Shown here: piece by piece, positions 1,194-36,789 of the stretch | Layout of the letters: each line of letters starts with the position of its first letter | Position numbering within the stretch: position 1 is the first letter of the stretch | Assembly: GCA_965205655.1 (NCBI GenBank) | Contig: CBDBIJ010000066.1 | Span: 1-36,789 of the forward strand | Direction: 5' to 3' | Length of the DNA stretch: 36,789 nucleotides | Source: Candidatus Latescibacterota bacterium | GTDB taxonomy: Bacteria; Latescibacterota; UBA2968; UBA8231 | The notes under the pieces: model-generated | Told to the model about the DNA's origin: nothing | The model's database searches: none | Seen by the model: the letters and a program-made list of their open reading frames with translations, nothing else | Made by a program: the position numbers and the translations under genes

Positions 1194-1198
1194 TCGCA

Positions 1199-1999: not shown

Positions 2000-2021
2000 C
2001 ACTTCCTACCTCCGCGTAGAG

Positions 2022-3245
2022 ATGGCAGTGAGAGGCACAACGACCGTGGCCCACACACAAGCCCTCAGTGACGAACAGATCTCGGATTACCGTGAAGACG
2101 GCTACCTGGTCATTCGCAATGTCCTGTCCTCCCGCGAAGCAGAGGACCTCCGGCGGATCGTGCAACACCAGGCTCGATGCAACGCGTACCCACCCAAGCT
2201 GACGTATCCCGAGCAGGGTAAGTACACGATCAGCGGTAACAAGATAGCCGAGCCGGGGCTGGCCCCCATTGCTGAACATCCCACCGTCGTGGATGCCGTG
2301 GAGTGCCTGCTGGGCCAATCGGCTCACCTGACGGCCTACGTCGCCTATCTGCGGACGCCGGGCAGCAAAGGGGCCGATGCGCACTGTGACTACAAGCGCT
2401 GGCGCCCGGTCGGCTCATCGATGAACTGGCTGTTCGCGATCATACCGCTCACCGATTTCAATCCGGAGTTCGGCCCTTTCCTGCCCTCCTCCGGATCTCA
2501 CAAGCTGAGCCGCGTGGTCGACGAGCAGGCGCTGATCCGGGATGTCATCCGTCCCGATGCCGAGCGGCTGCCACCGTTTGTCGATCCCGAACTCAAGGCC
2601 GGCGACCTGCTACTCGTAAATGAGCATACCTGGCACAAAGCGCCGAGCGGCACCTCCTCGGAAGATCGGTGCGGAATCTTCAACAAGTATTGTGCAGTCG
2701 ACGCGCCTCCAGCTGCTGGCTACTATCCGTATAGCCCGGCAGCCCTCGACGCCCTGAGTGATGCCGGCAAGCGTCTCATCCCCGTCTGTTTTGACAAACC
2801 GATCACCACGACGCGCCTGCTCATAGAGTGCCCGTCCGGTCAAGAGTCGAGATTCCTAATGCTGCGTAACGACGAACATGACGGCTGGGAACTGCCCGGT
2901 GGAGATGGCTGGGAAGAGGAAGGAGTTGGCTGGGATATCGGGGCCCGGATCGGCGCTCTGCAGGAACTCACAAAGACACAGCTCGGACTGGACATCCCGT
3001 GGATGTCCTATATCGAGGATGTTGAAACGAAAGACGGCGTCTGCCGACTGTACGGCTACTCCGGTGAAACATTGCCTCCTGACCAACTGGCCCGCGATCG
3101 GCATAAGTGGTTCACGAAAGACCAGCTACGGCGACTCCTCGGCGAGAGCGACTGGATCTGTCGCGCCGTCCAGACCTGGAAGCGCCGGGATATTATTCGC
3201 GGCAAAGGCAAGGCGGTCCGTCAGAGTAAACAACAGTTCGAGTGA
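2022..3245 (+). CDS. PhyH-family dioxygenase fused to a C-terminal Nudix-like domain
   Basis: LSDEQISDYREDGYLVIRNVL, HCD, SGSHK and LKAGDLLL...WHKA...R. The C-terminal ~145 aa contain FLMLR...WELPGG...ALQELTKTQLGL (degenerate Nudix box) and a HKWFT motif. Confidence 0.8.
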   Translation: MAVRGTTTVAHTQALSDEQISDYREDGYLVIRNVLSSREAEDLRRIVQHQARCNAYPPKLTYPEQGKYTISGNKIAEPGLAPIAEHPTVVDAVECLLGQSAHLTAYVAYLRTPGSKGADAHCDYKRWRPVGSSMNWLFAIIPLTDFNPEFGPFLPSSGSHKLSRVVDEQALIRDVIRPDAERLPPFVDPELKAGDLLLVNEHTWHKAPSGTSSEDRCGIFNKYCAVDAPPAAGYYPYSPAALDALSDAGKRLIPVCFDKPITTTRLLIECPSGQESRFLMLRNDEHDGWELPGGDGWEEEGVGWDIGARIGALQELTKTQLGLDIPWMSYIEDVETKDGVCRLYGYSGETLPPDQLARDRHKWFTKDQLRRLLGESDWICRAVQTWKRRDIIRGKGKAVRQSKQQFE

Positions 3246-17338: not shown

Positions 17339-18503
17339 GTGAGGCTCGGCACCAACAACAACATCAGCGCCATAAACGTGCGGCGCACGATTCTGAAGAA
17401 TCGGATGTCGACCGATCGTCAGATCGAATCCCTGGCATCGGGTCTACGGATCAAGCGGGCTGAGAACGACGCCTCAGGCGTATCGCTGTCTGAAGGACTC
17501 AGGTCAGAGCTCGCCAAACTGACGCAGACCCTGCGCAATGCCGAGCAGTCCAACGATCTGCTGCAAGTGGCCGAGGGCTCGTTGGGCCAGATGAGCGGGC
17601 TGTTGCAACACATGAGAGTGCTCGCCGTCCAGGCCGCGACGAGCACGTTGACGAACCAGCAGCGCGATGTCCTCAGCTCGGATTTCATCCAGGCGCGCCT
17701 GGCCATCGACCGAATCGCCATGGCGACGGTTTACAACAACCAGATCCTGCTGTCCGGCTTCGTTGCCGTCGATCGAGACTCGTCGACCGTCTTCACCGAC
17801 ACTGCCGCCACCGGTGCAGTGGATGTGAACTTCTCAGGGGCGGACAAGGGACTCTACAATTTCGTCGACTCGGCTGCCGATTTCTCAATCACCCTCGGCG
17901 ACGGCGCCACGACGCAGACAATCGACTTGAGCCGGGTGCTCGACAACGGCGCCGTGGCTCAGGGCACGAAGGTTGTCGCCAACTTCGATCGGCTCGGTGT
18001 GAAGCTGGTGCTCGCCGGACCGGGCGCCAGCAAGCCAGTGGGCGTGGGCGACTACGTAGCCGGAGACCTGGACGGCAAGACCCTCGTGATCGAGGAGACT
18101 GGCGGCGGCCTGTTTCACGTCAGTCGAAACGCCGACAGCAGCGCCCAGATCGGGTTCAACCTGCCGGACATGAGGACCACCGGCGCCGTGATGAATCTGG
18201 ACAGCCTGTCGCTCAGCTCACAGAGCGGCGCCAGGGGGGCTATTGCCCCCCTCGATCTGGCGATCGAAGCGGTGTCGCTGGAGCGCGGCAAGATCGGCGC
18301 CCTGAACAATCGTCTCGACCACTCAATCGTCTTCAGTGAGAACGATCTCGAGAATGTCTCGAACTCGGAGTCAACTATTCGTGACACCGACTTCGCCCTG
18401 GCGGCCTCCAGATTGACCCGCGCCCAGATCCTTACCGAGAGCAGCACGGTCATGCTGGCGCAGTCGCTGGCCTCATCCCCGCCGTCTGCTGCAGCTGCTG
18501 TAA
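17339..18503 (+). CDS. fliC: Flagellin; likely one extra C near 18478, true C-terminus probably ...RRLLQLL* at 18503 (unshifted ORF ends 18520)
   Basis: NNNISA...LASGLRIKRAENDASG...RNA...LLQVAEG...MRVLAVQAA N-terminal domain; RGKIGALNNRL...N..NSESTIRDTDFA...QIL C-terminal domain. Confidence 0.92.
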
Positions 18504-18636
18504 CTGCTCCTCCCGCCTAAGTACCTGTCCCGGAAGGGCCAACACCAGACGCACCCGCCTTGTTGTCAACGGCTGGTGGGCGTATCTTGAGCCGGTCGGT
18601 CAGCAGGTACTCCCACTCCAAACGGCTCAGCGAGAC

Positions 18637-20422: not shown

Positions 20423-21772
20423 ATGGATACACGAATGGAAAACAGCGGAACAATGACCGGGGCGGCAGTTTTCGCTGTCGACTCCGCGGTCGAGACCACC
20501 CTTTCTCTGCTCGAGGACCTGCTGGGCGCCTGTGACGTCGACTTCGCCGTGAGGCTCTGGGAGGGAACGACGTGGTCGCCGAGGCAGCGGCCAGAGCCGC
20601 GGGAAGGCGCCCCCGGCGTCATCCTCGTGCTGAGACACGCCTCGGCTCTCCGCCAGGCGCTGCTGAAGCCATCGGAGGTGAACCTGGCGGAGCGCTACAT
20701 CCACGACGACGTGGACATCGAGGGGGACTTGGAGTCACTCATACCGATCGGGGAGTCGCTGCTGGGTCAGCTGCGCGGTCCGCTCGACAAGCTGCGTCTC
20801 GGTCGACAGCTACTCGCACTGCCGTCGTCGCGCGGGCGCAAAGGACGGTTCGCCAACGGGCGACAGCGCGCCCACCTGTCCGGTGTGGAGCACTCGGCGA
20901 GCAGGGACAGCGCCGCGGTCACCCATCATTACAATGTTTCGAACGAATTCTACCGACTGTGGCTCGACCGCAACATGGTCTACTCCTGCGCGTTATTCTC
21001 GCGGGAAGACGAAGACCTGGACACCGCGCAGGAGCGCAAACTCGACTACATCTGTCGCAAGCTCAGGCTCGAGCCAGGGCAAAGGCTGCTCGACATCGGC
21101 TGTGGCTGGGGCGGCCTCATAACCCACGCGGCAGTCAACTACGGGGTCGAGGCCCACGGCATCACGCTGAGCGAACCTCAGGCAGAGCTGGCAAACGAAC
21201 GCATCGACGCGGCGGGTGTGGCCGACCGCTGCCGCGCCGATGTCCGCGACTACCGGGATCTGAAGGACGCCGAGGGCTACGACAAGATCGTCAGCGTTGG
21301 CATGGTCGAACACGTCGGAGGAGAAAAGCTGGACGAGTATTTCGGTGTGGCCTGGAGCCTCCTCAAACCGGGAGGCGTCTTCCTCAGTCATGGCATCGGG
21401 GACCTGCCCGAGAGACCAGCAAAGACGAACCGAGGCTTCATTCGGACCTACGTCTTTCCGGACATCGATCTGCCTCTCATCAGCCACATCTTCCGCGCCG
21501 CCGAGGCGAGCGGTTTCGAGTCGCGGGACCTCGAGAGTCTGCGCGAGCACTACGCCATGACCCTGCGCCACTGGGTGCGCCGGCTGGAGGCAAACCGGGA
21601 GGCGGCGCTTCGGCAGGTCGACGAGCGCACCTACCGCGTCTGGCGTCTCTACCTGGCCGGCTGCGCCAACTGGTTCGCAAGAGGCTACATAAGTGTCTAC
21701 CAGGCGCTGTTCGCAAAGCCGGATAATGGACGCAGCGGCATTCCCCTGCTGCGGCGGGACTGGTACGAGTGA
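20423..21772 (+). CDS. cfa: Cyclopropane-fatty-acyl-phospholipid synthase family SAM methyltransferase
   Basis: HHYNVSNEFYRLWLD.NMVYSCA, LLDIGCGWGG, GITLS..Q, DKIVSVGMVEHVG, YVFP, HYA.TL..W and RVWRLYLAGC. Confidence 0.92.
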   Translation: MDTRMENSGTMTGAAVFAVDSAVETTLSLLEDLLGACDVDFAVRLWEGTTWSPRQRPEPREGAPGVILVLRHASALRQALLKPSEVNLAERYIHDDVDIEGDLESLIPIGESLLGQLRGPLDKLRLGRQLLALPSSRGRKGRFANGRQRAHLSGVEHSASRDSAAVTHHYNVSNEFYRLWLDRNMVYSCALFSREDEDLDTAQERKLDYICRKLRLEPGQRLLDIGCGWGGLITHAAVNYGVEAHGITLSEPQAELANERIDAAGVADRCRADVRDYRDLKDAEGYDKIVSVGMVEHVGGEKLDEYFGVAWSLLKPGGVFLSHGIGDLPERPAKTNRGFIRTYVFPDIDLPLISHIFRAAEASGFESRDLESLREHYAMTLRHWVRRLEANREAALRQVDERTYRVWRLYLAGCANWFARGYISVYQALFAKPDNGRSGIPLLRRDWYE

Positions 21773-22386
21773 GAATCGGCGCCAACCACCGCCTCGAAGG
21801 CGAGGGGGTGGCGCACGTCGAGTCGCCGAATCACGGCGGTCCCTTCGCCAGCGGCGGTGCGGACACCATCGTCATCCACTTCACCGATTCGGCGACTCCG
21901 CAAGACGCAATCGACACCCTGTGCGACCCAAAACGCAAGGTCTCCGCCCACCTCGTCGTCGGCCGGGACGAATCGGTGGCGCAACTGCTGTCTTTCGACA
22001 CAGTGGGCTGGCACGCAGGCGAGAGTCGCTGGCACGGCCGCAGCGCTCTGAATCAGTACTCCATCGGTATCGAGGTGGACAACGCCGGCAGGCTCGAAGC
22101 GTCCGAGGGTGGCCGCTATCTGGCGTGGTTCGGCAAGGAGTACCCAGCCGAAGAGATGATCCGCGCCGTCCACCGCAACGAGTCGGAGCCATCGTGCTGG
22201 CACCGCTTCGCGACGGCGCAGGTCGAGCTGGTGGAGCGGCTGTGCGCGCTCCTCATCGAGGCCTACGGAATCGACACGATCGTCGGCCACGAGGAGATCG
22301 CCCCCGACCGCAAGGACGATCCAGGTCCAGCCTTTCCGCTGGACGAAATGCGCGATCGACTGTTCGCCGAACGACTACAAGCGTAG
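21769..22386 (+). CDS. N-acetylmuramoyl-L-alanine amidase (Amidase_2, AmpD-like)
   Basis: SPNH, IVIHFT, VSAHLVV, WHAGES, NQYSIGIE and VGHEEIAPDRK.DPGPAFP. GTG overlaps the cfa stop. Confidence 0.92.
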   Translation: MRIGANHRLEGEGVAHVESPNHGGPFASGGADTIVIHFTDSATPQDAIDTLCDPKRKVSAHLVVGRDESVAQLLSFDTVGWHAGESRWHGRSALNQYSIGIEVDNAGRLEASEGGRYLAWFGKEYPAEEMIRAVHRNESEPSCWHRFATAQVELVERLCALLIEAYGIDTIVGHEEIAPDRKDDPGPAFPLDEMRDRLFAERLQA

Positions 22387-22396
22387 GGACCGGTCC

Positions 22397-25337
22397 CTAT
22401 GACGTACTCGGCGCCCGGCTCTCCCAGAGCTGAATCGCTTCACCCATCACCCGCTCCACATCCTCGCGATCGAAGGGTTTGGCCAGCACGAGGTCGACGA
22501 CGGACTTCGGGTCCGCGTCTGCGCTCTTGTATTCCCAGCCGGTCATGAGAACGACGACAGTGCGCGGTGAGCTCGCCTTCACCTGCTGCGCGATCTCCAA
22601 ACCGGACACTTCAGCCATGACCCAGTCGCTGACGACGACATCGAAGGTCTCCCTGCGCACTCGCTCGAGTCCCTCGGCACTGCGGTCAGTGGTTTCGACG
22701 CGGTGGCTGTGCAGCGGCGGCGGCAGCAGCTCGAGGACGCGCGGCTCATCGTCGATGATGAGGATGCGCAGCGCCCTGCCGTTGCCGCCGTTCGCTCTGA
22801 CAGATTCGGTTTCTTCGCGCACCGAGGCGATCGGCACGCGTATATCGAATCTCGCACCCTCTCCCGGGCGGCTGGCGACCTCGACGCGACCACCCATGGT
22901 CTGCACCAGGCCCCAGATGGTGCTCAGACCTAGGCCGGTGCCCTGCTCCAAACCCTTCGTGGTGAAGAACGGCTCGAAGACACGGCGGCGAGTCTCCTCA
23001 TCCATGCCGATGCCGTCGTCGGACACCGACAGCACGACCTGCTCGCCATCCTGCCGGGTCTGCACGGTTATGACGCCGCCCTCCGGCATAGCGTCGACGG
23101 CGTTGAAGATGAGATTGGAGAGGATCTCTTCCCATGCGGCGCCCTGGCTTCTGATTGGCGGCACCTGCTCGAGATCCATTTCAACCCTCACGGAAAGACC
23201 GGCCTGCTCCGACTGGTTCTTCCACTTCGGCCTCGTGAGATCGACGGTGTCGCGCACCACATCGGAGAGATTGACGAGCTCCGTTTTCTGCGCGTCGATG
23301 GGCCGGCCGAAGGTCTGGATGCGGCGGACGATCGCCGAGCACCGCCGGGCCGATTCCAGAATGCGGTTGGCATCGTGCTTTAGAGTCTCGGGCAGATCGT
23401 CGTGCATGCCGATCAACTCGGCGTTACCGAGCACGACGGTGAGCAGGTTGTTGAAGTTGTGCGCCACCCCGGCAGCCATCTCGCCCAAGGCTCGCAGTTT
23501 CTCCGCCTGGTGCAGCTGTTCGCGAAAGCGCATCGTCGCCTGCTCGCGATCGCGCCGCTCGGTTATGTCGCGTCCGATGGCGTGAACGCCGGTCGTCTCA
23601 CCAGCCTGGACGATCCAGCGGGATACGAGCTCGAAGGTGGACTGCGAGCGGTCGGCTCGGACGAAGTTCGTCTCCACGACCGATCTTCGCTCACCGGGTC
23701 TGGCAAGCTCCACCTGCTCCCGAACGCGACCGGCGTCCGCTGGAGACAGCAAGGAGTACATACTCTGGCCGATCACATCGGCAGACGCATACCCCAGAGC
23801 CTGCAATCCCGCTTTGTTCACCGAGGTGAACCGCATTTCAAGATCGGTGGTGAAGACGAGGTCTTGGGCGTTGTCGAACAGGTCCCGGTAGGCCCGCTCC
23901 GACTCCTCGAGAGCTTGCGTTGATTCCGAGAGGGCGGCGGCCATGTCGTTGAAGGAGCGGGCGAGCTGACCGATCTCGCTGCGGGTCGTTACATCGAGGC
24001 GGTGGTCGAGATCGCCAGTGGCGAGTCGCCGGGTGCCGTCGACGAGAGCCAGCACGGGCCGGGTGATGCGACGAGCGCCGAGAAAGCTGACGAGGGCGGC
24101 GACGACCATGACGCCGAAGCCGATGAGGAGCAGAACTCGCTCGAGCGCACTCAAGAACTCGAAGGCCTGGTCGAGCGAGAGCTGAATGAGGTAGAATCCG
24201 CCGCCGTGTGATAAGGGGCGGTCGCTTTCGGGTTCGGCCTGGGAGACGGGGGCGAACTCGCCGGCCGATGAGAGGTAGGTCTCCGAGCCGACCCGCATCT
24301 GAAAGTGGCTCTCCCTCTGGAAACGCCGATCATCCAGCTGCTGCTGAAGCTCCAGTCGCCGAGGCTCGTCCCAGGTCGAGGCGACGACGAGACCATTGTG
24401 GATGAAAGAGACCTGGCTGCGCATCATCTGACCGAGGTCCGCTGCCAGTTGGTCGTCGATCTCAAACCCGACGCTGAGGCTGCCGACGACCTGTCCCTGC
24501 GACCAGACCGGAACCGCCGCGAGGGTGGTAGAGCCTCTCGCTGTCGATGTAGAGACCGCTCACCTCGCGGCCCTCGAGGGCCGCCTCGACCGGCTCGCGG
24601 GTCGAGAAGTCCTCGCCGGAGCTCACCTCGCACAGGGTGATCACCGTTGGTGTTTTATGGCGGTCGGATATCGCAATCACATCCGGGGCGAAGGCGAGCT
24701 GAAGCTCCCGCAACAGACCGGAAGCGCCGCCGATGCGGCCAGTCTCCAGAGCCCGGCGAGTCTCGCTGGAGGCAGCGAGCTGGCGGAGATGCGCGGTCAC
24801 CGGTGAGACGTCGACCGGCTCGGCAAACCCGACGCTCAGGAAGGCGATTTCCTCATCGCCCTCCCGGACCGGCTCCGAGACCACGTGGTAGTCGCGACCA
24901 CCGATAATCCAGCGCCCCTCTACGCCCGAGCTCTCAGCCTCAACAACGTCGTCGGAGATCTCGGAGACTTCGAGTCGCGCCAGTACTCGGCCGGATCGAT
25001 TCGTGGTGACGAAGAGATCGCTGCCGATGATGCTCTGAAACTGCTTGGCCACAGGGATCACGGTGCGCGCGTGCGTCTCGAGGTCGGGGTCAGGAATGTC
25101 GAGGGTCGCCGAGAACCGCGGGTCTTCGGCCACGACCAGGCTCTGCGAGCGGAGCCAGTCGGCTCGCTCTCTCATAAGGGCGTCGAAGACAGACCCAGTT
25201 CTGTCGAGATCGTCGGCGAGCTGCAGCCGGATGCGGTGCTCGACTGAGTTGTGGATGACGGCCAGCGTCAACGCCACAAGGGCGACGACGATGCCGAAGG
25301 TGAGCAGGAGCAGGCGATTCCTGAGAGTGAGTTTCAC
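22397..25337 (-). CDS. Membrane hybrid sensor histidine kinase (periplasmic Cache-like, HAMP, PAS, HisKA, HATPase, REC), frameshift near 24523
   Basis: TM1 in ORF 24462..25337. Removing one C gives LYHLAAVPVWSQGQVVGSLSVGFEIDD in frame with ORF 22397..24427, which has TM2, HAMP (EIGQLARSFNDM), PAS (RDITER), H-box GVAHNFNN, N box, DDGIGM, FEPFFTTK, GTGLGL and REC (IIDDE, SDWVM, KPF). Confidence 0.9.
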
Positions 25338-26026: not shown

Positions 26027-27270
26027 AACAGCAGCGTCAGTTGCGCAGCCAGGATGTGCTCGCCGTCCGTTTCTGAACCGGGCCGGCCGAGATCGTTGAG
26101 CTGGGCAACGAGCTTGGCGATGACTGGCTCGGTGGGCCGATACCCCAGGCCGAGCTCAAGACGGTCGACATCGTTGTCCCACGGCTCCGAGTTGGCGGCT
26201 CCGGTGCCGTCGTCGATCTCACCGAAGCGGAGCCCGTCGTAACGGGCGGCCGCGAACAGCCCCGGTCGCAGGCTGTACCTACCCTCCACATAATAGCCGA
26301 AGACTTCCAAATCCTCCCGGCGGTTCCCAGTATCGCGAACGTTGGGCGATTCCCAGCTGTTGGATACCAGCTCTGCATGGATCTGGAGATGACGAATTCC
26401 GTACTCCATGGAGAGCCCGACGATTTGCTGGTCGAAGTCCTCCACATCCGAGCCGGCGGCCCGCAGGGTGTCGCCGACAGCTCTATCGAGGTAGGGCCCA
26501 CGGGCGAAGGAGCCCCGCACCAGGAGTCCGGTGAATGGGACGAATCCGAGGCGCAACGCCAGCTGACGGCCGTCGTTGTTGTCGACGGCGTTCGAACGCG
26601 GATCGGAAAGGGTGCCCTGGGTGAGGGCGGCGAGATACTCGAAACGCCAGACCGAGCCGATAGCGCTGGCACCGAAGTCCCAACAGGAGTCGTACACGAG
26701 CGGCAGGCCGCTGAACCTGAGGGGAGAGCCGCCTCCGCCGTATCCTCCGAACCGGGCGGAGGGACCCTGGCCGCGGCGGCTGAGCAGCTCGGCGTTGCTC
26801 GCCGGCAGCTGGTTTGACCGCAGCGAGGTGGCGTAGTGGTAGATGAGCGGGATGCCGAGCAGCGGGTTCTTGTCGGTGTAGGAGCGCTCGGTGAAGTGAC
26901 CGAACGGGGTCGGGATTTTTCCCGCCTCGATACTCAGATCGACACTTTCGCTGGCGAACAGCTCATAGCGCAGGTAGGAGCGCAGAAAGCTTCCCAGCGT
27001 AGCCCGCCCGGAGGGGTCGACGGGGAGCTGGTTGAACAAGGTCAGGCGCTCGTCGACGACGACATCGGCAAACAGGTTGAGACGCAGATGACTGAAGGGG
27101 CTGTCCGACCGGCGCAGGAGGTTGGCGTGACGAGCATCTTCGCCGGCATCCGACAGAAGAATATCGAACGTACCGGCCACGAAGACGGCGGGATCCGTCT
27201 CAGCGCTCGCCCGACCAGTTGTTGAGGTGAGCAGCACGGCGAGCGAGACTACACAGAGCGCTCTTGCCAT
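26023..27270 (-). CDS. Outer-membrane beta-barrel (porin-like) protein
   Basis: Signal peptide (ASA cleavage), GKIPTPFG, DNNDGRQ...RLG, YYVEGRY, ARYD, alternating amphipathic strands and C-terminal AQLTLLF ending in Phe. Confidence 0.75.
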   Translation of the reverse strand: MARALCVVSLAVLLTSTTGRASAETDPAVFVAGTFDILLSDAGEDARHANLLRRSDSPFSHLRLNLFADVVVDERLTLFNQLPVDPSGRATLGSFLRSYLRYELFASESVDLSIEAGKIPTPFGHFTERSYTDKNPLLGIPLIYHYATSLRSNQLPASNAELLSRRGQGPSARFGGYGGGGSPLRFSGLPLVYDSCWDFGASAIGSVWRFEYLAALTQGTLSDPRSNAVDNNDGRQLALRLGFVPFTGLLVRGSFARGPYLDRAVGDTLRAAGSDVEDFDQQIVGLSMEYGIRHLQIHAELVSNSWESPNVRDTGNRREDLEVFGYYVEGRYSLRPGLFAAARYDGLRFGEIDDGTGAANSEPWDNDVDRLELGLGYRPTEPVIAKLVAQLNDLGRPGSETDGEHILAAQLTLLF

Positions 27271-27411
27271 TCGCTTAAGGTATCTCAGCAGAGTGGGGTA
27301 TGAAAGGGAGGACGTACTCCTGCCGCATTTGACGGGGCGGTGTGGATGCCAGTGATTTTTCTCTCAAGATGCTATTCAGAAAGAAGATACGCGGATTCCC
27401 CGGCGTCGAGA

Positions 27412-29678
27412 ATGAGGCAGACCTCGCGAGGCCGCGTCTGGCGCGGCGCCGCGCTCGCAACGCCCGCTGGAGGCGTGTCCTCGCCTTGTCCTGGGCCGGT
27501 ATCACCGTCGCAGCAGCGACCGGGTTCGCAGATTGGCCCAGCTGGCGGGGAGCCGAGCAAACCGGTGCATCACGAGAAGCGGGTCTCATTTCATCGTGGA
27601 CGGTGGATGGCGCCGGTCAGCTCTGGCGCGCCGATTTCATCGGCCGCTCCACACCGGTCATCTTCGACGGGCGCGTTTGCGCCGTCGGCAGATCCGGTGA
27701 CGGCGTTTCAAAACGGGAGCGGGTTTCGTGCTTCGATACTGCCAGCGGCGACCTTATCTGGGACCACCGCTTCAACGTCTTTCACACGACCATTCCCTTC
27801 AACCGGGTGGGGTGGGCGAGCCCAGCCTTCGACCCGGAAACGGGAAACCTCTACGCCCACGGAGTGCAGGGGCTGCTGCTGTGCTACGGCAAGAGAGGTG
27901 ACATCCTGTGGCAACGCTCACTTACCGAGGAATTCGGACGGATCTCCGGGTACGGCGGCCGCATTCACACGCCTGTCGTGGACGGTGACCTCGTCATCGT
28001 CAGCTATCTGAACAGAAGTTGGGGCGATCACAGAATTCCGAGACATAGATACTTCGCCTTCGACAAGTACACGGGCGAGGTAGTGTGGATTGCGACGCCT
28101 GGTGGCCGCCCACTCGACACGACCTACTCGACGCCGGTCGTGGCCGACATCGACGGCGCGCGGCTGCTCATCGCCGGCAATGCCGACGGCGGCATCTACG
28201 GGATGAAGGTGACGACCGGGGAAAAAGTGTGGGGCTTCGCGCTGAGCAAGCGCGGCATCAACGCCTCCGTCGTCGTCGAGGGCACGCGGGTCTACGCCGC
28301 CCATAGCGAGGAGAACGTGGACGGCACCGTCATGGGGCGTGTCGTCTGCATCGACGCCACGGGCTCGGGGGATGTGACCGCGACTCACGAGCTGTGGCGT
28401 TACGACGGATGTCAGGTGGGATACGCCTCACCGGTCGTGCACGAGGGCCGGGTTTACGCGGTGGACAACAGTGCCAACCTCCACTGTCTGAATGCTGACA
28501 ACGGCGAGCTGATGTGGACGCACAACGTCGGCACCGTGGGCCGCGGCTCGCCGGTGTGGGCAGACGGCAAGCTCTACGTCACGGAAGTGAACGGCAGCAT
28601 CCAGATTCTGGAACCCGACGACAAGGCCTGCAGCGTGCTCGACTCGGATACCATTCGTATGCCCGACGGCGGCCCTGCAGAGATCTTCGGCTCGCCTGCT
28701 GTGGCTGACGGTCTCGTCTACGTCGCCACCGAGGCTGGGTTGCTCTGCCTGGGAGAGGGTGGGCGGGAACGATCGAGCACGAGCCTCCAGTGGCGCGTCA
28801 GCACACGCCGGCAGGCACCCCGGATACAACTCGTGCCGGCAGAAGTCTCGATCGCGCCGGGGGACTCGGTTCGATTCTCCGTCAACGCTTTCAATCAGAA
28901 GGGTCGCAAGGTGGCGTCTTCAGCGGCGACAAAGTGGGAGATGGAGGGGCTCTCGGGAACGTTGGTCGACGGACTTTTTGCGACGGAGGCGGAGAGTGGG
29001 CAGGTCGGGCTCGTCCGGGTTCGCGTTGGCGGAGGAGGGGGAGGCAACGACGGGAGGCTCGAAAGCACCGCCAGGGTTCGAGTAGTGCCCCACGGATCGT
29101 GGTCCGAAGATTTCGAAAGCATGAGCGTCGAGGAGGGATCGAACGCGGCCCCCGGTCACTGGATCGGAGCGGGAGGCAAGTTCGTCGTGCGCCAGCTCGA
29201 TGACGGCAACAAGGTGTTCGTGAAAACGCTGGCGAAGCGGGGACTGCAACGCTCGAACGTCTTCCTGGGGGAGCCGGACATGAGCGGCTACTCGATCCAG
29301 ATCGATCTGATGGGCTCGAAAGCAAAGCGGAACCGCCCGGACATGGGACTTATCGCCAATCGCTACACCCTCGACATGATGGGGAACCACCAGCAACTGC
29401 AGATCCGCTCGTGGGCTGCCGAGCTGCGGATGGCGACGCAGGTGCCCTTCGAGTGGGAGACGGAGGTGTGGTACCGAATGAAGATGACGATCGCCGACGA
29501 CAAAGGAAAAGCCGTTGTCAAAGGCAAAGTCTGGAAACGCGCCGATCCCGAGCCGCAGGGCTGGACGATCACGGCAGAAGATCCCTTTCCCAATCGTGAA
29601 GGCAGCCCGGGACTGTACGGATATTCGGCGGCTGAAATCTCCTACGACAACCTCATCGTGACGGTGGCAGAGAAATGA
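27412..29678 (+). CDS. Exported PQQ-binding-like (BamB-like) beta-propeller with C-terminal Ig-like and beta-sandwich domains; start uncertain (ATG 27412 plus probable frameshift near 27465, or in-frame GTG 27342)
   Basis: ADWPSWRG, repeated S(T/S)PV..DG and D..TGE..W propeller blades; then RIQLVPAEVSIAPGDSVRF and WSEDFE...WYRMK...GKVW...EP..WT...GSPGLYG. Confidence 0.85.
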
Positions 29679-31126
29679 AGACGAACTGGCTCAGAGGCGC
29701 GACCGGAGTTGCAGTGGCCGGCATTATTGCGGCGAGCACCTGGTCCCGGCCCGCTTCCGCGGCGGAAACGATGTGGGGATTCACGCCAGGGCGCAACATG
29801 GTGTCCGAGGCGTCGAATCTGCCTTCGTCATGGAATGTCGACAGCGGCGACAACATCCTGTGGACGGCCGAGCTCGGCTCGCAGACCTACGCCGGACCGC
29901 TCGTCGTCGGGGACAAGATCATCGTCGGCACGAACAACGAGGCTCTTCGCAACCCGGCCCTGAAAGGCGATCGCGGCAACCTCATGGCGTTTTCGAGAGC
30001 GGACGGACGCTTCCTGTGGCAGGCGACACACACGAAGCTGCCCGCCGGCCGCGTCAACGACTGGCCGCTGCAGGGCGTTTGCTCGACACCGTACGCAGAA
30101 GGAGACCGGCTCTACTACGTTTCGAATCGCTGTGAGGTCGTGTGCGTCGACCTCGAGGGATTTCAGGACGGCGAAAACGACGGCCCCTTCGTTTCCGAAA
30201 GCGACACGAGCTCCATCGACGGCGACATCGTCTGGACACTCGACCTGATGGAGGAGCTCAATGTCTTTCCGCACAATCTGGCCACCAGCTCACCAGTGGG
30301 GGCGGGCGATCTCATCTTCCTCCTCACATCGAACGGCGTCGACGAGGGGCACATTCACATTCCGTCACCTTTCGCGCCGAGTTTCATCGCCGTCGACAAA
30401 AACACGGGAGAGGTGGTGTGGGAAGACGCCTCGCCGGGAATGAACATCCTGCACGGCCAGTGGTCGAACGCCTCCTACGGCGTCATGGGTGGACGCCAAC
30501 AAGCCGTCTTCCCGGGCGGCGACGGCTGGCTCTACTCCTTCGAGCCGAAGACGGGCAAACCGCTCTGGAAGTTCGATCTGAATCCGAAAGACTCCGTCTG
30601 GAAGCTCGGCGGCCGCGGCACCCGCAACAACATCATCTCCACACCCGTCATCGTCGATGATCGGGTCTACATCGCCGTCGGTCAGGATCCCGAGCACGGC
30701 GAAGGCGTCGGCCATCTGTATTGCATCGACGCCACGAAATCAGGCGACGTGACTGAAACCGCCGCGATCTGGCACTTGGGTGGCGACGACTACAAACGCA
30801 CAATGTCGACGGTGGCCGTTCACGACGGCCTGCTCTACACCGCAGACCTGAGCGGCTACGTCTACTGCCTCAATGCCGATACCGGCGAGAAGCTGTGGAC
30901 CTACGACAGCTTCGCGGCGATCTGGGGTTCACCGCTGGTGGCGGACGGCAAGGTCTACATCGGCGACGAGGACGGCGACGTGGCGGTGCTCAAAGAAGGC
31001 GACAAGCTCGAGGTGCTGGCCGAGATCCAGATGGGCAGCGCCGTCTACACGACGCCGCTCCCCGCAGACGGCGTGCTCTACATCGCCACCCGCAACAGGC
31101 TCTTCGCCATCGGCGCCGGCGAGTGA
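29675..31126 (+). CDS. Exported PQQ-binding-like beta-propeller protein
   Basis: Signal peptide (ASA-A), WG.TPGRNMVS, NILWTAELGSQTY, repeated STP/SSP and D..TG...W blades, WGSPLVADGKVY. ATGA overlap with the upstream gene. Confidence 0.88.
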   Translation: MKTNWLRGATGVAVAGIIAASTWSRPASAAETMWGFTPGRNMVSEASNLPSSWNVDSGDNILWTAELGSQTYAGPLVVGDKIIVGTNNEALRNPALKGDRGNLMAFSRADGRFLWQATHTKLPAGRVNDWPLQGVCSTPYAEGDRLYYVSNRCEVVCVDLEGFQDGENDGPFVSESDTSSIDGDIVWTLDLMEELNVFPHNLATSSPVGAGDLIFLLTSNGVDEGHIHIPSPFAPSFIAVDKNTGEVVWEDASPGMNILHGQWSNASYGVMGGRQQAVFPGGDGWLYSFEPKTGKPLWKFDLNPKDSVWKLGGRGTRNNIISTPVIVDDRVYIAVGQDPEHGEGVGHLYCIDATKSGDVTETAAIWHLGGDDYKRTMSTVAVHDGLLYTADLSGYVYCLNADTGEKLWTYDSFAAIWGSPLVADGKVYIGDEDGDVAVLKEGDKLEVLAEIQMGSAVYTTPLPADGVLYIATRNRLFAIGAGE

Positions 31127-31144
31127 GAAAGTGAGTGTGAGGCA

Positions 31145-32236
31145 ATGACGGCCGCGGCACAGATGAGTCTCGACGATTCGATATCGGCGGCGCGCCGGGA
31201 GCTCGACGACCATGTGCGCGATATCGTTCAGTGGCACTTCGACACGCAAAGGGGCAGCGAGTTCTGGCTGGATTACGCCCGGCAGCTCGACTTCGATCCG
31301 CGTGAGGCGATCCAGGGCTACGGCGATCTCCAACGGCTCGGTCACTTTCAGGATGAGTGGCTTCGCGGCGGACCGGTGCGGCGGTGGGTGCCGAAGGCCT
31401 TCGCCGACGAGGCGGTGTACGTGTTCGAGACCGGAGGATCCACCGGGATCCCGAAGAGTCGGATCAACATTCGCGACTTCGAAATCGACTACGAGCAGTT
31501 CAGCAATGCTCTGCCGGAAGACGGATTTCCCCGCGGCGCCGACTGGCTCATGCTCGGCCCGAGCGGCCCGCGACGGCTGCGGCTGGCGGTGGAGTTCCTG
31601 GCCCAGATCAGGGGCGGCATCTGCTTCTTCGTCGACATGGATCCGCGTTGGGTGACGGAGCTCATCAGGCAGGGAAGGCACCGGGAGGTGCAGGACTACT
31701 CCGCCCACATCATCGATCAGGGGCTCAAGCTGCTACGCTCTCACGATTCGATCCACTGTCTGTTCACGACACCGCGTTTGCTCGAAGCGCTGGGCCAGAA
31801 GATCGACCTCAACAAGGCCGGCATCAGGGGAATTTTCTGTGGCGGTACCGAGATGGACGCCCAGTTCAACCGCTTCGCCCGCGAGGAGCTCGTCCCCGGC
31901 ATCGAGTTCGTCCCCACCTACGGCAATACCCTCATGGGTCTGGCTCACCCCAAGCCCTTCGATCAATCAGATAACTTCGATGTCACCTATTATCCGCCCC
32001 AGCCGCGTGCCGTCATCGAGCTCGTCGACCCGAACGAGACGGACCGGGTCGTCGACTACGGCGAGACCGGCCGGGTTATGCTGACGACGCTGACACACGA
32101 GTTCTTCATGCCTCGCTTTCTCGAGCGGGACGAGGGTGAACGGGCACGGCCGGTCGAGCCGTATCCCTGGGATGGCGTCCGCAATGTGAGACTACTGCGA
32201 TCGCTCGAGGAGAGCGTCACGGTGGGCGTCTACTGA
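31145..32236 (+). CDS. EhpF/GriC-like atypical ANL-superfamily adenylating enzyme (arylcarboxylate reductase component)
   Basis: WHF...GSEFWL...LDFDP, ETGGSTGIPK (A3-like P-loop), GPSGP, FFVDMDPRWV, TTP, GGTE, YGNT, VDYGETGRV..T.L, PR..ERD and C-terminal GVY. From my recollection of Pantoea EhpF, the motif order and ~365 aa length match. Confidence 0.8.
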   Translation: MTAAAQMSLDDSISAARRELDDHVRDIVQWHFDTQRGSEFWLDYARQLDFDPREAIQGYGDLQRLGHFQDEWLRGGPVRRWVPKAFADEAVYVFETGGSTGIPKSRINIRDFEIDYEQFSNALPEDGFPRGADWLMLGPSGPRRLRLAVEFLAQIRGGICFFVDMDPRWVTELIRQGRHREVQDYSAHIIDQGLKLLRSHDSIHCLFTTPRLLEALGQKIDLNKAGIRGIFCGGTEMDAQFNRFAREELVPGIEFVPTYGNTLMGLAHPKPFDQSDNFDVTYYPPQPRAVIELVDPNETDRVVDYGETGRVMLTTLTHEFFMPRFLERDEGERARPVEPYPWDGVRNVRLLRSLEESVTVGVY

Positions 32237-33678
32237 TGCGCATCCCCCTCCTGAGAGCTGGACAGCCGTACCGGAGTCTCAAAGTCACGGAGTTGCGGCA
32301 CGTGGCCACTGGCGAGCCAGTGGCCGAGGTGAGCCAGGCGAATCAAGGGATCATTACTCGAGATCTACTGAACGCGCGAGAGAATCAGCGAGCGCTCGCG
32401 GCCAGCGGCGCTGACGAGCTCATCGATATCTGCCGGCGGGCGGCCGACCTGTTTCAAACTGCGGCGCTGCCGGTAGTCGGCGTTGAGGATGGCCAGCCGC
32501 TCCATACGCCGGACGATTACATCTCCTGCTTGTCGGCCACGACCGGTCTGCCTCACACGCTCTGCCGCTCGAACATGGAGAAGATCCGCCGCGTTTTGGC
32601 CCACATGGACGAGGTGATCGCCGGTCTCACGCGCGGCATGAATGCGGCCGTCCTCGACGAAGGTTGGGGGGTGCAGGATGGGCGCACTCTCAGCTACCGG
32701 CGTCAGACTGAAGCGCTGGGCGCGGTGCTGCCGAGCAACTCTCCCGGGGTGCACGGTCTGTGGCTGCCGTCGATTCCGCTCAAGGTACCGGTGGTGCTCA
32801 AACCCGGCAGCGAAGAGCCGTGGACGCCCTACCGAATCGCCGCGGCCCTTGTCGCAGCCGGTTGTCCGGAACAGGCAATCAGCCTCTACCCCACCGACTA
32901 CGGCGGCGCCACGCAGATCCTGTTGCACTGCGACCGCTCGCTTCTTTTCGGTGGAGGGGAGACCGTCCGGCCGTGGCTGGATGACCCCCGGATCGAGGTT
33001 CATGGCCCGGGTAGGAGCAAGATCCTACTCGGGGCCGACGAGGCGCGGCGCTGGGAGAAACACCTGGACCTGATAGTCGATTCGGTGGCGGCAAACGGCG
33101 GGCGCTCCTGCATTAACGCCTCCAGTGTGTGGACGACCGAACGAGGCCGCGATATCGCCGAGGCCGTCGCCGCAAGACTTGCCCAGATTGAACCGGCGCC
33201 GCTGGATGATCCCGGGGCGCAGATGGCCGCTTTCGCGAATCCGGAGGCAGCGACCCGGATTTCAGCAGCGATTGACCGACAACTGGGCCAGCCGGGGGCC
33301 GAAGATGTGACGATGGCGCACTATGGGACGAACGAACGAGTCGTCACGGTTGGCGGGTGCACGTTTCTCCGGCCGACGGCAATTCTTTGCACCGAACTGT
33401 CTCACCCGTTGGCGAACACGGAGTACCTCTTTCCCTTCGTCTCCGTCGTCGAGGTGAAGCAAGCCGAGATGTCACGGCGAATCGGACCATCTCTCGTGGC
33501 GACGGCCCTGACGGAAGACGAACGGCTCGTGGCCGACCTCATGGAAAGCGCCGATATCGACCGTCTCAACATCGGGCCGATTCCGACGCACCAGGTGTCG
33601 TGGGACCAGCCGCACGAGGGGAATCTGTTCGAGCACCTGTATCGGCAGCGCTCCTTTGCCACGGCGCTGCGGGCGTGA
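32236..33678 (+). CDS. Aldehyde dehydrogenase-fold acyl reductase, GriD/EhpG-like
   Basis: PSNSPG, LKPGSEEP, FGG, catalytic Cys in NGGRSCINAS and EYLFPF. HGPGRSK replaces the canonical ELGGK. TGATG overlap with the adenylating enzyme. Confidence 0.82.
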   Translation: MRIPLLRAGQPYRSLKVTELRHVATGEPVAEVSQANQGIITRDLLNARENQRALAASGADELIDICRRAADLFQTAALPVVGVEDGQPLHTPDDYISCLSATTGLPHTLCRSNMEKIRRVLAHMDEVIAGLTRGMNAAVLDEGWGVQDGRTLSYRRQTEALGAVLPSNSPGVHGLWLPSIPLKVPVVLKPGSEEPWTPYRIAAALVAAGCPEQAISLYPTDYGGATQILLHCDRSLLFGGGETVRPWLDDPRIEVHGPGRSKILLGADEARRWEKHLDLIVDSVAANGGRSCINASSVWTTERGRDIAEAVAARLAQIEPAPLDDPGAQMAAFANPEAATRISAAIDRQLGQPGAEDVTMAHYGTNERVVTVGGCTFLRPTAILCTELSHPLANTEYLFPFVSVVEVKQAEMSRRIGPSLVATALTEDERLVADLMESADIDRLNIGPIPTHQVSWDQPHEGNLFEHLYRQRSFATALRA

Positions 33679-33688
33679 GTCAACGGCC

Positions 33689-34795
33689 ATGAAAGTTCTC
33701 TTTGGCAGCCACGCCATCGACCGGCTCGGCGAACTCGCCCGCGAGCTGTGTAACGGCACCGTACTCGTGGTCACCGACCCCGGGATCGAGCAGGCCGGCA
33801 TAGTCGACAGGGCGTTGCAGTCGCTGCAGCGGGCATCGGTTGCGCACGCCGTGTTCACCGGGGTGGAGGAGAACCCGACGACGGCGCATGTCAGCGAGGG
33901 CGTCGCGTGTGCGCGGCAAGGTGATGAGGTACAGCTCATCGTCGGGCTCGGCGGCGGCAGCGCCATGGACTGCGCCAAGGGAGTCAACTTTCTGCTGTCG
34001 AACGGCGGCCGCATGGAGGACTACTGGGGCGACGGAAAAGCACAGGAGCCGATGCTGCCCTCTATCGGGATTCCTACCACCGCAGGAACGGGAAGCGAGG
34101 CCCAGCGCTACGCCCTCATCGCGCAGGAGGCGACGCATCGCAAGATGGCGTGCGGCGACGAGAAGGTTCGCTTCACCACTGCCATTCTCGATGCGGAGTT
34201 GATCGGCAGCGTGCCCAGAGGTGTGGCCGCCGCCGCCGGCATCGATGCTATCTCCCACGCGGTGGAGACCTACGTGGCGACGACGGCGACGCCATCTTCG
34301 AGGCTGCTGGCCCGACAGGCGCTGAAGCTGCTGGCAGCACACATCGAGGAGTACCTGGGCGATCCGCAGGCATCGGCGAGGGCCCGTCACAGGATGTTGT
34401 TGGGAGCTCACTGGGGCGGCGCGTCGATCGAGCGATCGATGCTGGGTGCCGCCCACGCCTGTGCGAATCCACTGACGGCGCGCTACGGCATCAAACACGG
34501 CGTCGCCGTGGGATTGATGCTGCCCCACGTGGTCGAGTTCAACAGCCAGGCCGTCAATGGCGAGTACGAAACGCTTGGCGCGGTGGTGGGTGGCGCCGGA
34601 TGCGAGTTCCTCGTGGAGCGCATTTTCGAGCTGAACCGCACTGCCGGACTGCCCGAGCGCCTGCGGGAGCTGGATGTGGAGGAGACGGACTTCTCCGACA
34701 TGGCGATGGAGGCAGCCGATCAGAAAACAGCCAGTTACAATCCCAGGCCTGTCGCCGCCGATGATCTGCAGACGCTCTACGAAGCGGCGTACTGA
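33689..34795 (+). CDS. Iron-containing alcohol dehydrogenase
   Basis: VVTDPG, ENPT, GLGGGSAMDCAK, IPTTAGTGSE, DAISHAVE, HACAN, KHG and NPR. Confidence 0.93.
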   Translation: MKVLFGSHAIDRLGELARELCNGTVLVVTDPGIEQAGIVDRALQSLQRASVAHAVFTGVEENPTTAHVSEGVACARQGDEVQLIVGLGGGSAMDCAKGVNFLLSNGGRMEDYWGDGKAQEPMLPSIGIPTTAGTGSEAQRYALIAQEATHRKMACGDEKVRFTTAILDAELIGSVPRGVAAAAGIDAISHAVETYVATTATPSSRLLARQALKLLAAHIEEYLGDPQASARARHRMLLGAHWGGASIERSMLGAAHACANPLTARYGIKHGVAVGLMLPHVVEFNSQAVNGEYETLGAVVGGAGCEFLVERIFELNRTAGLPERLRELDVEETDFSDMAMEAADQKTASYNPRPVAADDLQTLYEAAY

Positions 34796-36012
34796 AGCGC
34801 GAAATTGGACGCTCATTCACGTCGGCACGCTCCTCATCGCACTTCTCCTCGGGTGGAGTGCCCCCGGGGCAGCGAGCGCTGACACCGGTGTCGACAGCTG
34901 GCCTTCTTTTCGGGGGAACGCCCGGCAAACCGGCGTGGCGGCGATGCCACTGGCGCGCGAGCTCGAGCTTCAGTGGGCGTTCAGAATGGCGCCCGGCGAA
35001 GCGCCGGCGGCCAATGTCGACGTCGGGATCGAGTCGACGGCGGCTATTGCGGACGGCAGCGCGTATGTGGGAGGACTCGATTCACAGTTGTACGCCATTG
35101 CGCTCGGGGATGGCAAGCTGAAATGGAAATACGCCACTGCAGCGCCAGTGACAGCGTCTCCGGCCGTTTCGGGTGGCGCCGTCTTCTTCGGAGATGAGTC
35201 GGGCCTGTTCCACGCCGTCGACGCAGCTACAGGTAAGGGGCGTTGGACCTTTGCCACCGACGGAAAAATCACCGCGTCTGCCAACGCGGTGGAGGGCAAG
35301 GTCATCTTCGGCAGCTACGATACGAACCTCTATTGCCTGGCCGCGGATACGGGAGCGCAGATATGGCGGGCCGAGACCGAGGACTACGTTCACGGATCGC
35401 CCGCAGTGGCGGACAGTGTGGCGTTGACCGCCGGCTGTGACGGGTTTCTGAGACTCATCGATCATGCAGAGCGGGCAGCGAAGTTGCCCGCATCGAGCTC
35501 GGGACCTACGTCGGCGCCAGTCTTGCAATCGGCGACAGTGGCAGAGCCTACGTCGGCACGTTCGGCAATCGAGGTGCTCGGCATCAATCTCGTGACAGCG
35601 CCGGCGGATGAGTTGGCGCTACACAGCAGGGCTGAGAGACAGTCATCCCTTCTACGCTTCCGCCGCTGTGACCGCCGATGCAGATAGTCGCCATCGGCGG
35701 GTCGGGATCGGCTCCGTGCACGCCCTCGACCCGCACTCGGGCGCGTTGCTGTGGAGTTTTGAGGCGGCAGGCAAAGATCGACTCTTCGCCCAGTCGTCGC
35801 CGGCGACCGGGTATTTTTCGGATCGAATGACGGCCGGCACGTGTACACAGCCTCGAACCTGGCAACCGGGCAACCGCCGAATGGTCAGTTTGACAGCGGC
35901 TCTGCAATCACGGCGTCGCCGGCGAGTCGCCAGCAGGCCGGCTCGTCATCGGCACAGTGCAGACGGCGTCGCTCCTCTGCTTCGGCGGCAAAGACTGAGA
36001 CTGAAGGCATGA
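34761..36012 (+). CDS. Third exported PQQ-binding-like beta-propeller, several frameshifts after ~35470
   Basis: ATG 34761 gives a signal peptide (RRSTKRR...LLIALLLGWSAPGAASA), then WPSFRGNARQTG, ESTAAI, ASPAV, DAATGKGRW and HGSPAV. Propeller fragments continue across frames to the stop at 36012. Confidence 0.7.
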
Positions 36013-36789
36013 CAAAAGCCGGCAAACCCGGAACCGGCCACGACGCGACTGGACGAACTCCTCACGGAGACGGAGATCGGATCTGTCTTCGTTTCCAACT
36101 ACCCGCCCTACTCGTTCTGGAAGACGGAGGACGATCACACTGCCCACGCCGCCCTCGACGCTCCTGCAGTCGCGTCCCGCAGAACCGCCAGTCAGATCTC
36201 GGTCTCTATATCCACATCCCGTTCTGTCGCAAGCGCTGCAAGTTCTGCTATTTCCGGGTGTACACCGACAAGAATGCGAGTCAGATCCAGTCGTATCTCG
36301 ACGCCGATCTGAGTCGCGAGATCGAGCTCTACAGCCAGCTTCCACGAACCGACTGTCCGCCCTCTCAAGTTCGTCTACTTCGGCGGCGGCACGCCATCGT
36401 ATATCAGCGCCCGGCACCTGAAGGCATTCGTCAAGCAGGCAACCGCGGCGTTGCCATGGTCGGAGGCGGAGGAGATCGCATTCGAGTGCGAGCCGGGCAC
36501 TCTGACCGAGGCGAAGGTCGAGGCTATCGCGGACATTGGGGTGACCAGGCTCAGCCTCGGGGTGGAGAACCTGAACGACGCCATTCTCGCCGAAAACGGT
36601 CGCGCCCATTTGTCTCGCGAGGTGTACGAGGTGATGCCGTGGATCGAGGCGCGGCAGTTCGAACAGGTAAACGTCGATTTGATAGCGGGGATGACGGGGG
36701 AGACGTGGGAGAGCTGGCGCGAGACCGTGGCGCGGACGATCGATCTGGGAGCCGACAGCATCACGGTGTACCAGATGGAGCTGCCCTAC
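36009..36789 (+). CDS. HemN/HemW-like radical SAM enzyme (coproporphyrinogen III oxidase family), frameshifted, 3' truncated by window
   Basis: Not in the ORF track. ATG 36009 overlaps the upstream stop. SNYPPYSFW, LGLYIHIPFCRKRCKFCYF (CxxxCxxC at 36225-36248), YFGGGTPS, FECEPG, RLSLGVE, VNVDLIAGM.GET and YQME are spread over two frames. Confidence 0.88.
   Translation, partial: MTKAGKPGTGHDATGRTPHGDGDRICLRFQLPALLVLEDGGRSHCPRRPRRSCSRVPQNRQSDLGLYIHIPFCRKRCKFCYFRVYTDKNASQIQSYLDADLSREIELYSQLPRTDCPPSQVRLLRRRHAIVYQRPAPEGIRQAGNRGVAMVGGGGDRIRVRAGHSDRGEGRGYRGHWGDQAQPRGGEPERRHSRRKRSRPFVSRGVRGDAVDRGAAVRTGKRRFDSGDDGGDVGELARDRGADDRSGSRQHHGVPDGAAL

Follow-up and report, generated by a model that had tools for sequence, protein, structure and literature searches.

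What task unites three exported beta-propellers, a two-component carboxylate reductase, an iron-containing alcohol dehydrogenase (Fe-ADH) and a HemN-like radical SAM enzyme, whose genes stand in one operon at the end of a contig from Candidatus Latescibacterota? The stretch analysed, here called the window, is the entire contig C66 (CBDBIJ010000066.1; 36,789 nucleotides, nt) of a genome that is 84% complete. We find that its seven genes belong to a genuine operon of about 16 genes and form its front half; the operon is common to several little-studied bacterial phyla, is conserved and matches no described pathway. Our reading, held tentatively at a probability of about 0.45, is that a swappable set of genes, the head, supplies an aromatic redox product, as a bound cofactor or a recycled mediator, to periplasmic propellers. 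These would form a chassis together with the propeller P3, a family 4 glycosyltransferase (GT4) bearing a CxxC motif and a LolD/MacB-type ATP-binding cassette (ABC) system. The head would comprise the reductase pair F and G, Fe-ADH, the radical SAM enzyme, a flavin halogenase, a PaaK-like ligase, a thioesterase, a chorismate-lyase fold, a sodium symporter, a small membrane protein and a TonB receptor.

All seven genes are read from the forward (+) strand, in the order that the original prediction had given: propeller, propeller, EhpF/GriC-like, GriD/EhpG-like, Fe-ADH, propeller, radical SAM. Its family calls (PQQ_2 propellers, AMP-binding, Aldedh, Fe-ADH, HemN-like radical SAM) also hold. The first gene, P1 (27369 to 29678; PF13360), encodes an exported BamB/PQQ-like propeller with two all-beta C-terminal domains. 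The ATG at 27412 from which it had been drawn is out of frame with P1; the in-frame starts are GTG 27342 and ATG 27369, and the choice between them is uncertain. The claimed ATGA overlap at 29675 joins P1 to P2 (29675 to 31126), an exported propeller with invariant polar motifs. An 18-nt gap (31126/31145) precedes F (31145 to 32236), an adenylating enzyme of the EhpF/GriC family, which is coupled by TGATG at 32236 to G (32236 to 33678; PF00171), a putative acyl reductase of the aldehyde dehydrogenase (ALDH) superfamily. Fe-ADH (33689 to 34795; PF00465, PF25137) begins with the ATG at 33689 after 10 nt, in keeping with the claim of gaps of 18 nt or less. It is followed by P3 (34761 to 35998, start at 34761 or 34815), an exported ACSF4-type propeller recognised from homologues and frameshifted in this assembly, and by the 5' part of the HemN-like (class C-type) radical SAM gene (36009 to 36789), which has two frame breaks and is cut by the contig end. 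The stop/start overlap proposed at 36009 is an artefact, because the homologous end of P3 is the TGA at 35996-35998 and the true gap is 10 nt. Since the window is the whole contig, the operon runs off its end, as had been stated. Neither a sigma-70-like promoter nor a terminator was found in 27150-27600.

Is the linkage kept elsewhere? Within 10 kb of a homologue of F (31145) and on the same strand, in the 80 best named loci, P2 recurs in 74, P1 in 72, G in 67, Fe-ADH in 39, P3 in 35 and the radical SAM gene in 27. All seven are present in 25 loci, in identical order in 25/25; the remaining loci are cut short or interrupted by insertions. These loci carry the labels Poribacteria, Latescibacterota, Gemmatimonadota, KSB1 or uncultured bacterium, and the synteny bears out the claimed linkage across phyla, which could have been absent from other genomes. 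As leads, the atlas clusters of F and P2 also point to Planctomycetota, Acidobacteriota and Actinomycetota. Cross-phylum identity is 56-71% for six of the seven genes and 49% for P3; P1, at a median identity of 62% in relatives, is split in two genes in many Poribacteria. F is present in 37/61 related genomes and in 22/121 genomes of KSB1, the phylum of G061, which holds a KSB1-labelled locus; the KSB1 positives include an unpublished genome (G143), on which alone no claim rests. Poribacteria insertions were left out of the operon model as lineage-specific: sulfatase, creatininase, PhyH, thiamine pyrophosphate enzyme, Vgb-like, toxin-antitoxin-like ATPase and restriction-modification genes. 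In three Poribacteria loci (L081, L088, L096), F stands next to an M16 peptidase, and the 10 kb around it contain none of the other operon genes.

The rest of the operon was mapped in the 20 kb downstream of F in 19 of 36 F-positive relatives, picked for long contigs. The tail contains a PaaK-like ligase (15 of the 19), a flavin halogenase (14), a GT4 with an N-terminal CxxC (13), a small membrane protein of 156 amino acids (aa; 13), a 4HBT thioesterase (13), a MacB-type permease (12) and a sodium symporter (10), and in many relatives a fourth propeller (P4) and a TonB receptor. The source genome has genes for GT4, the membrane protein, the thioesterase and both ABC components (ATPase and permease) at the end of contig C31, and the TonB receptor, a chorismate-lyase fold and a broken P4 on contig C87; orthologues of the ligase and the halogenase were not found in this 84% complete genome and probably fall in an assembly gap. 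The 37/61 relatives with the small membrane protein are identical to those with F, and the TonB receptor is present in 32/37 F-positive versus 0/24 F-negative relatives. The original prediction was thus right about seven real genes and saw seven of about 16, without the halogenase, the chorismate-lyase fold, the transporters and GT4. Some neighbours recur less widely: a Gfo/Idh/MocA oxidoreductase precedes the TonB receptor in the source genome and in G042, a DUF3311 protein of 70-84 aa stands directly before the symporter in five distant loci (L248, L257, L261, L268, L271), and MsrAB adjoins the halogenase in two KSB1 operons (L185, L189). A compact variant, F-G-GT4-ABC-MacB, was seen in L208, L210-L212, L215, L216, L219, L223 and L236, mostly with one propeller nearby and sometimes with a glyoxalase-family gene; L236 has two F copies.

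What do the enzymes do? F aligns with EhpF (structures 3L2K/3HGU) over residues 10-362 (E 4.7e-42). Its clade, with at least 8000 clusters at 90% identity, has the motif GPRRLR, which may bind an extra anionic group; distant relatives, 30-42% identical, mostly have GPH. Two of these distant relatives, P0190 (824 aa) and P0215 (725 aa), carry the F domain C-terminally and are possibly natural G-F fusions. In G, residues N168, H256 and C292 are invariant in 33/33 sequences; C292 is the ALDH-type catalytic cysteine, and His256 lies before the GxGxS motif, at a position where hydrolytic ALDHs presumably have a glutamate. The residues expected of the claimed EhpF/GriC and GriD-type pair are thus present, as far as sequence can tell, and the pair is a new clade of a known two-protein family. 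In that family GriC activates 3-amino-4-hydroxybenzoate by adenylation and GriD carries out the reduction to the aldehyde (PMC10179220, part of the text), and EhpF-O lead from phenazine dicarboxylate to D-alanylgriseoluteic acid (PMC3175449, likewise in part). The original prediction had no phz or griH-type genes in view, and none were found in five genomes searched or in the operon maps: PF01959 was found in 0/5 (its control matched in three archaea) and PF03284, the phz search, in 0/5 (no positive control matched). Nor do the downstream maps show a known phenazine or aminobenzoate cluster.

Fe-ADH scores below every NCBIfam equivalog cut-off. Intact homologues of the radical SAM enzyme have about 449 aa, an invariant CxxxCxxC and a HemN_C domain, and one scored below the cut-offs for HemN (198/325 bits), HemW (175/205) and ChuW (200/400). 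The halogenase of the relatives has GxGxxG, K73 and WxWxIP invariant in 14/14 sequences and is of the PltA/CmlS class, its best PDB structures being PltA/CndH-type halogenases (we take 3E1T to be CndH); it also matches QhpG and LodB, below cut-off. Read backwards, the same folds could serve catabolism or detoxification, in which an aromatic alcohol or glycoside is imported, Fe-ADH and the ALDH oxidise it to the acid and the ligases activate it. The Fe-ADH and ALDH folds are reversible, and two of the transporters, the TonB receptor and the sodium symporter, work as importers. The halogenase, the chorismate-lyase fold, radical SAM and GT4 nevertheless belong to biosynthetic enzyme types, G has His256 in place of the presumed hydrolytic glutamate, and the maps show no recurrent genes for ring cleavage or beta-oxidation, which makes this direction very improbable.

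A lipid would be another substrate. F and G might act like LuxE/LuxC on a fatty acid, with the alcohol glycosylated by GT4, flipped, extracted by MacB and carried by the propellers to the envelope, on the model of heterocyst-type glycolipids. Against this, F is EhpF-like, no family match to LuxE was returned, and F ends in GVY or GIY in 25/25 clade members (GVY in the window), without a C-terminal cysteine such as the acyl-carrier cysteine of LuxE. An aromatic substrate is indicated instead by the chorismate-lyase fold, the PaaK-like ligase and the phenolic-type halogenase, and no acyl carrier protein or ketosynthase recurs among the mapped open reading frames (length cut-offs 70-100 aa). GT4, small membrane protein and LolD/FtsX-type ABC do resemble a lipid flip-and-extract set, the propellers are BamB-like, and the main text of a preprint on comparable sponge-symbiont clusters (10.64898/2026.08.03.742642) reports frequent matches to the glycolipid exporter BrtI. 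On balance we regard a lipid product as improbable.

A clue to the substrate is a chorismate-lyase fold. PF01947 (chorismate pyruvate-lyase) occurs in 25/37 F-positive versus 0/24 F-negative relatives, often far from the operon, and in KSB1 in 2/22 versus 0/99, that is, in 27/59 genomes with F and 0/123 without. A second subfamily of the same fold, missed by Pfam (hhalign probability 96.9), lies directly beside the halogenase in nine loci; it is present in 4/22 F-positive versus 0/99 F-negative KSB1 genomes, and was negative in all five relatives searched, all five from the F-positive set that lacks PF01947. The fold is therefore exclusive to F-positive genomes in our samples, yet dispensable (31/59). 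We considered whether chorismate lyase and importers are strict alternatives and rejected this, as both are adjacent in the source genome (G000), G042 and L022. A planctomycete paper proposes that a chorismate lyase beside a halogenase, of another class, gives dibromo-hydroxybenzoate (10.1101/723874, part of the text). A substrate of the 4-hydroxybenzoate type would fit these matches and, since lyase fold and ligase are both dispensable, may be either made or imported.

A question remains, do the propellers need the product? In the 61 relatives the propeller clan of P4 (one to eight matches per genome) is found in 37/37 F-positive versus 2/24 F-negative genomes, and the median number of PQQ-like Pfam matches per genome is 20 with the operon versus 8.5 without. 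One genome, G003 (81% complete, 810 contigs), has six clan matches; searches of it found neither F nor G, no close P2, no small membrane protein, and neither a halogenase orthologue nor the TonB receptor. The original prediction held that the product serves the propellers. This co-occurrence agrees with it, but its simple form, in which every clan propeller needs the product, fails in KSB1, where the clan occurs in 21/22 F-positive and also in 23/99 F-negative genomes. The clan as a whole, then, does not depend on the product of this pathway, and we replaced strict dependence by the reading of a fixed chassis with exchangeable heads.

That reading is carried by GT4. With 14 candidates scored per KSB1 genome, CxxC-GT4 is found in 41/44 clan-positive versus 1/77 clan-negative genomes, including 21/23 F-negative clan carriers; the clan thus tracks GT4 (41/44) and not the reductase (21/44). 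Fifteen of those 21 F-negative loci were fetched (L278-L292), several of which end at a contig or region edge. In 14/15, P3 and GT4 are neighbours, and ABC and MacB usually come after them; the remaining locus, that of G123, is a 5-kb contig that carries a GT4 of the F type alongside a TonB receptor. Upstream lie a 2Fe-2S/GltD-like protein (13 of 15), a NuoE-NuoF fusion (12), a propeller with an N-terminal membrane-like segment (11) and ferredoxin with a membrane polyferredoxin (9). The sister operon consists of an NHL protein, ferredoxin, membrane polyferredoxin, propeller, NuoEF fusion, GltD-like protein, P3, CxxC-GT4, ABC and MacB, and its chassis proteins are 32-48% identical to the F-type ones. 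Judged by family matches, its head could be an NADH-linked Fe-S electron wire to the periplasm. The sister head genes had no match in the 277 other loci of the analysis, a search that did not extend to whole F-positive KSB1 genomes, and the source genome had no match for the ferredoxin or polyferredoxin. A single metagenome-assembled genome (MAG), G139, keeps P2, P3, P4, the TonB receptor, GT4, the thioesterase and ABC together in a single block, while searches for F, G, radical SAM, halogenase and the small membrane protein came up empty there, a set that might fit a scavenger of the product.

From gene content and order, families, catalytic motifs, co-occurrence and the sister operon we infer the following course for the pathway. 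The head would make or scavenge a 4-hydroxybenzoate-type acid, which would be halogenated, probably as a CoA ester, and receive a C1 unit by radical SAM chemistry. F would then adenylate the carboxyl group, G would take the acyl group on Cys292 and release the aldehyde with NAD(P)H, and Fe-ADH would reduce the aldehyde to a benzyl alcohol. The product would cross the inner membrane and serve the periplasmic propellers as redox cofactor or mediator. A redox product is favoured because the sister head is apparently NADH-linked and Fe-S-based, whereas this head would spend ATP and NAD(P)H and has an importer and a likely exporter; the exchange of an Fe-S wire for enzymes hints at a product that carries electrons. 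The mediator form of this idea, doubtful as yet, makes the head a chemical electron wire that does the same job as the NADH-flavoprotein/polyferredoxin head of the sister operon. The symporter would import a haloaryl acid or aldehyde in its oxidised form, F, G and Fe-ADH would reduce it at the cost of ATP and NAD(P)H, the alcohol would leave through the small membrane protein, and the propellers would re-oxidise it in the periplasm, as in the aryl-alcohol/aldehyde cycle of fungi. Both heads would feed one shared, hitherto undescribed periplasmic propeller system whose assembly would need CxxC-GT4 and the MacB-type ABC. This form would account for the retention of both importer and exporter, for the dispensable synthesis genes and for the apparent alternation of the heads.

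Several observations, besides the F-negative clan carriers of KSB1, weigh against a redox product for the propellers. The fold does not imply a cofactor, because the propeller models lie nearest to BamB and tetrathionate hydrolase; the propellers resemble these, BamB being free of cofactor, as much as or more than quinoproteins. Vicinal cysteines are absent (0/45 P2 sequences, and 0/35 and 0/14 in the other two sets). The PaaK-like ligase is present in just 1/5 F-positive KSB1 genomes searched, which weakens CoA-tethered halogenation; PF01947 is missing from 12/37 F-positive relatives, and the chorismate-lyase fold from 16/22 F-positive KSB1 genomes. The copy on C87 of the source genome scores 31.2 bits (PF01947 cut-off 22), yet may bind rather than catalyse, because it has VVGLVT in place of the TDGTVT of relatives. 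The genomes behind our counts are kin, not independent, and mostly incomplete MAGs. Two further points also fit metal uptake: the TonB receptor passes the siderophore-receptor cut-off (264 versus 223.5 bits), and some propellers are fused to enterochelin-esterase-like domains. These propeller-Enterochelin_N-esterase fusions, of about 800 aa, stand up to four in tandem in KSB1 operons (L184, L186, L188, L194, L195, L166, L172).

Could the operon then make a glycoside of a halogenated aryl alcohol for secretion, to act as metallophore, signal or defence compound, which the propellers tailor or bind in the periplasm, MacB exports and the TonB receptor retrieves, with export and re-uptake as in the pyoverdine cycle? 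Besides the receptor and the fusions, the direct adjacency of F, G, GT4, ABC and MacB in several distant loci favours it, and the preprint cited above, in its main text, treats such clusters as natural-product clusters. However, 56-71% identity across phyla (six genes; P3 49%) is a high figure for secondary metabolism, 5/37 F-positive relatives have no TonB receptor, most fusions inspected lack the GxSxG serine (two keep GGSSG), and the same chassis works with a purely Fe-S head without such enzymes. We consider a secreted glycoside unlikely, if a serious contender, and retain the redox product as our working model.

The propellers themselves give few hints of a known role. The P1 model (pLDDT 86.6) has an N-terminal helix at 10-36 and finds BamB and tetrathionate hydrolase as best folds; its C-terminal domains have no Pfam match. 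P2 carries the motifs WPxQGxCS, HNLA, DEGH, HGQW and QDPEHGE, whose invariant His, Asp and Glu hint at a catalytic or metal-binding site, and an intact homologue of P3 passes the PF13570 cut-off (203 versus 133 bits). Fold searches with the propeller models returned generic propellers alone. The propellers reach 23-59 bits with the quinoprotein model TIGR03075 (cut-off 480) and 52-89 bits with the BamB equivalog (cut-off 285); a lipobox-like motif is present in 3/45 P2 and 0/35 P1 sequences, and pqqC was over cut-off in 0/61 genomes, with no control genome matching. A P1-P2 complex prediction scored 0.00, and its controls were not folded. Two P4-clan genes of the source genome lie in pieces, at 9213-14017 of C87 and at about 12070-13340 of C113.

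The frame breaks at the end of the window, absent from the original prediction, deserve comment. Compared with intact homologues, P3 has eight or nine (about 35467-35938) and the radical SAM gene two (about 36176-36357), all in an error-rich stretch of the assembly at 35426 to 36420. Contigs of run X1 match window 27000-35434 with at most one difference. Those of X2, X3 and X4, three public runs from two studies, lack 49 window letters across 35426-36420, where they also show 29-34 substitutions (about 3% difference), with listed indels at 35464-35684. Given these contigs, the breaks are most likely errors of this assembly, and a pseudogene reading of the two genes is less likely.

Elsewhere in the window, a divergent block upstream of P1 (22397-27270, - strand), not kept beside the operon in relatives, encodes exported proteins of 415 and 221 aa, both without a Pfam match, and a 291-aa open reading frame next to a HAMP-PAS-kinase-receiver protein; the latter two perhaps derive from a single sensor gene that a frameshift near 24430-24460 has broken in two. 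A lone flagellin gene (17339-18520), a cyclopropane fatty acid synthase gene overlapping an Amidase_2 gene (20423-22386) and two PhyH genes in tandem (1016-3245) are unrelated to the operon.

PQQ-like propellers are abundant in these lineages. The present analysis ties a propeller clan to one chassis of CxxC-GT4, P3 and MacB-type ABC, fed by a head that would reduce aryl acids or by an Fe-S head, and gives a direct test both of the propeller ligand and of whether an aromatic cofactor or mediator new to biology exists. The largest known clade of two-protein carboxylic acid reductases met in the analysis thereby gains a candidate substrate class, and an explanation is on offer for some of the orphan halogenase clusters recently catalogued in sponge symbionts.

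How does the operon compare with what is known? The literature searched, which left most subscription papers outside its coverage, holds no description of the full operon. The nearest clusters are the Halo_AMP orphan clusters of sponge microbiomes (10.64898/2026.08.03.742642), defined by a halogenase and an AMP-binding gene in one cluster, a pair that is found in our relatives. According to the main text of that preprint they share with the operon a BagE/YtkN-like ligase, a Bmp2-like halogenase and radical SAM, frequent PQQ-like domains, TonB receptor, glycosyltransferase, thioesterase and ABC genes, and their hosts include Acidobacteriota, Latescibacterota and Poribacteria; judged from that text alone, the operon tail is probably among them. 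The same text centres on a P450-containing variant tentatively linked to barettins, mentions no aldehyde, alcohol, dehydrogenase, EhpF, HemN or chorismate, and gives no product. In baaAB of Planctomycetales 10988, which makes 3,5-dibromo-p-anisic acid, and in bmp5/bmp6, a chorismate-lyase-like gene adjoins a flavin halogenase as it does here, and dihalo-4-hydroxybenzoate is the proposed product of the two baa enzymes (10.1101/723874). Yet BaaB is about 44% similar to Bmp5 whereas the operon halogenase is of the PltA/CmlS type, and the part of the baa paper available describes no reductase, propellers or transporters. The halogenase class rules out baa as part of the operon. Quinoproteins that use pyrroloquinoline quinone (PQQ; pqqA-E, PqqU) and the 'acido-empty-quinoprotein' TIGR04528 likewise have exported PQQ-like propellers, dispersed co-occurring paralogues and a TonB receptor, whereas our propellers and receptor score far below the quinoprotein, TIGR04528 and PqqU cut-offs and the propellers lack vicinal cysteines. 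BamB is the best structural match for P1 and P2, yet both are below its cut-off, the lipobox is rare and many His, Asp and Glu residues are invariant. Finally, EhpF/EhpG of Pantoea/Enterobacter agglomerans Eh1087 (D-alanylgriseoluteic acid) and GriC/GriD (grixazone) share with our pair a full-length EhpF match followed by an ALDH-superfamily gene with the catalytic cysteine; F differs in forming a separate tight clade with GPRRLR for GPH, and its neighbours, unlike those of the ehp and gri clusters, are propellers, halogenase, radical SAM, GT4 and transporters. The novelty thus lies in the system and not in the two-protein reductase itself.

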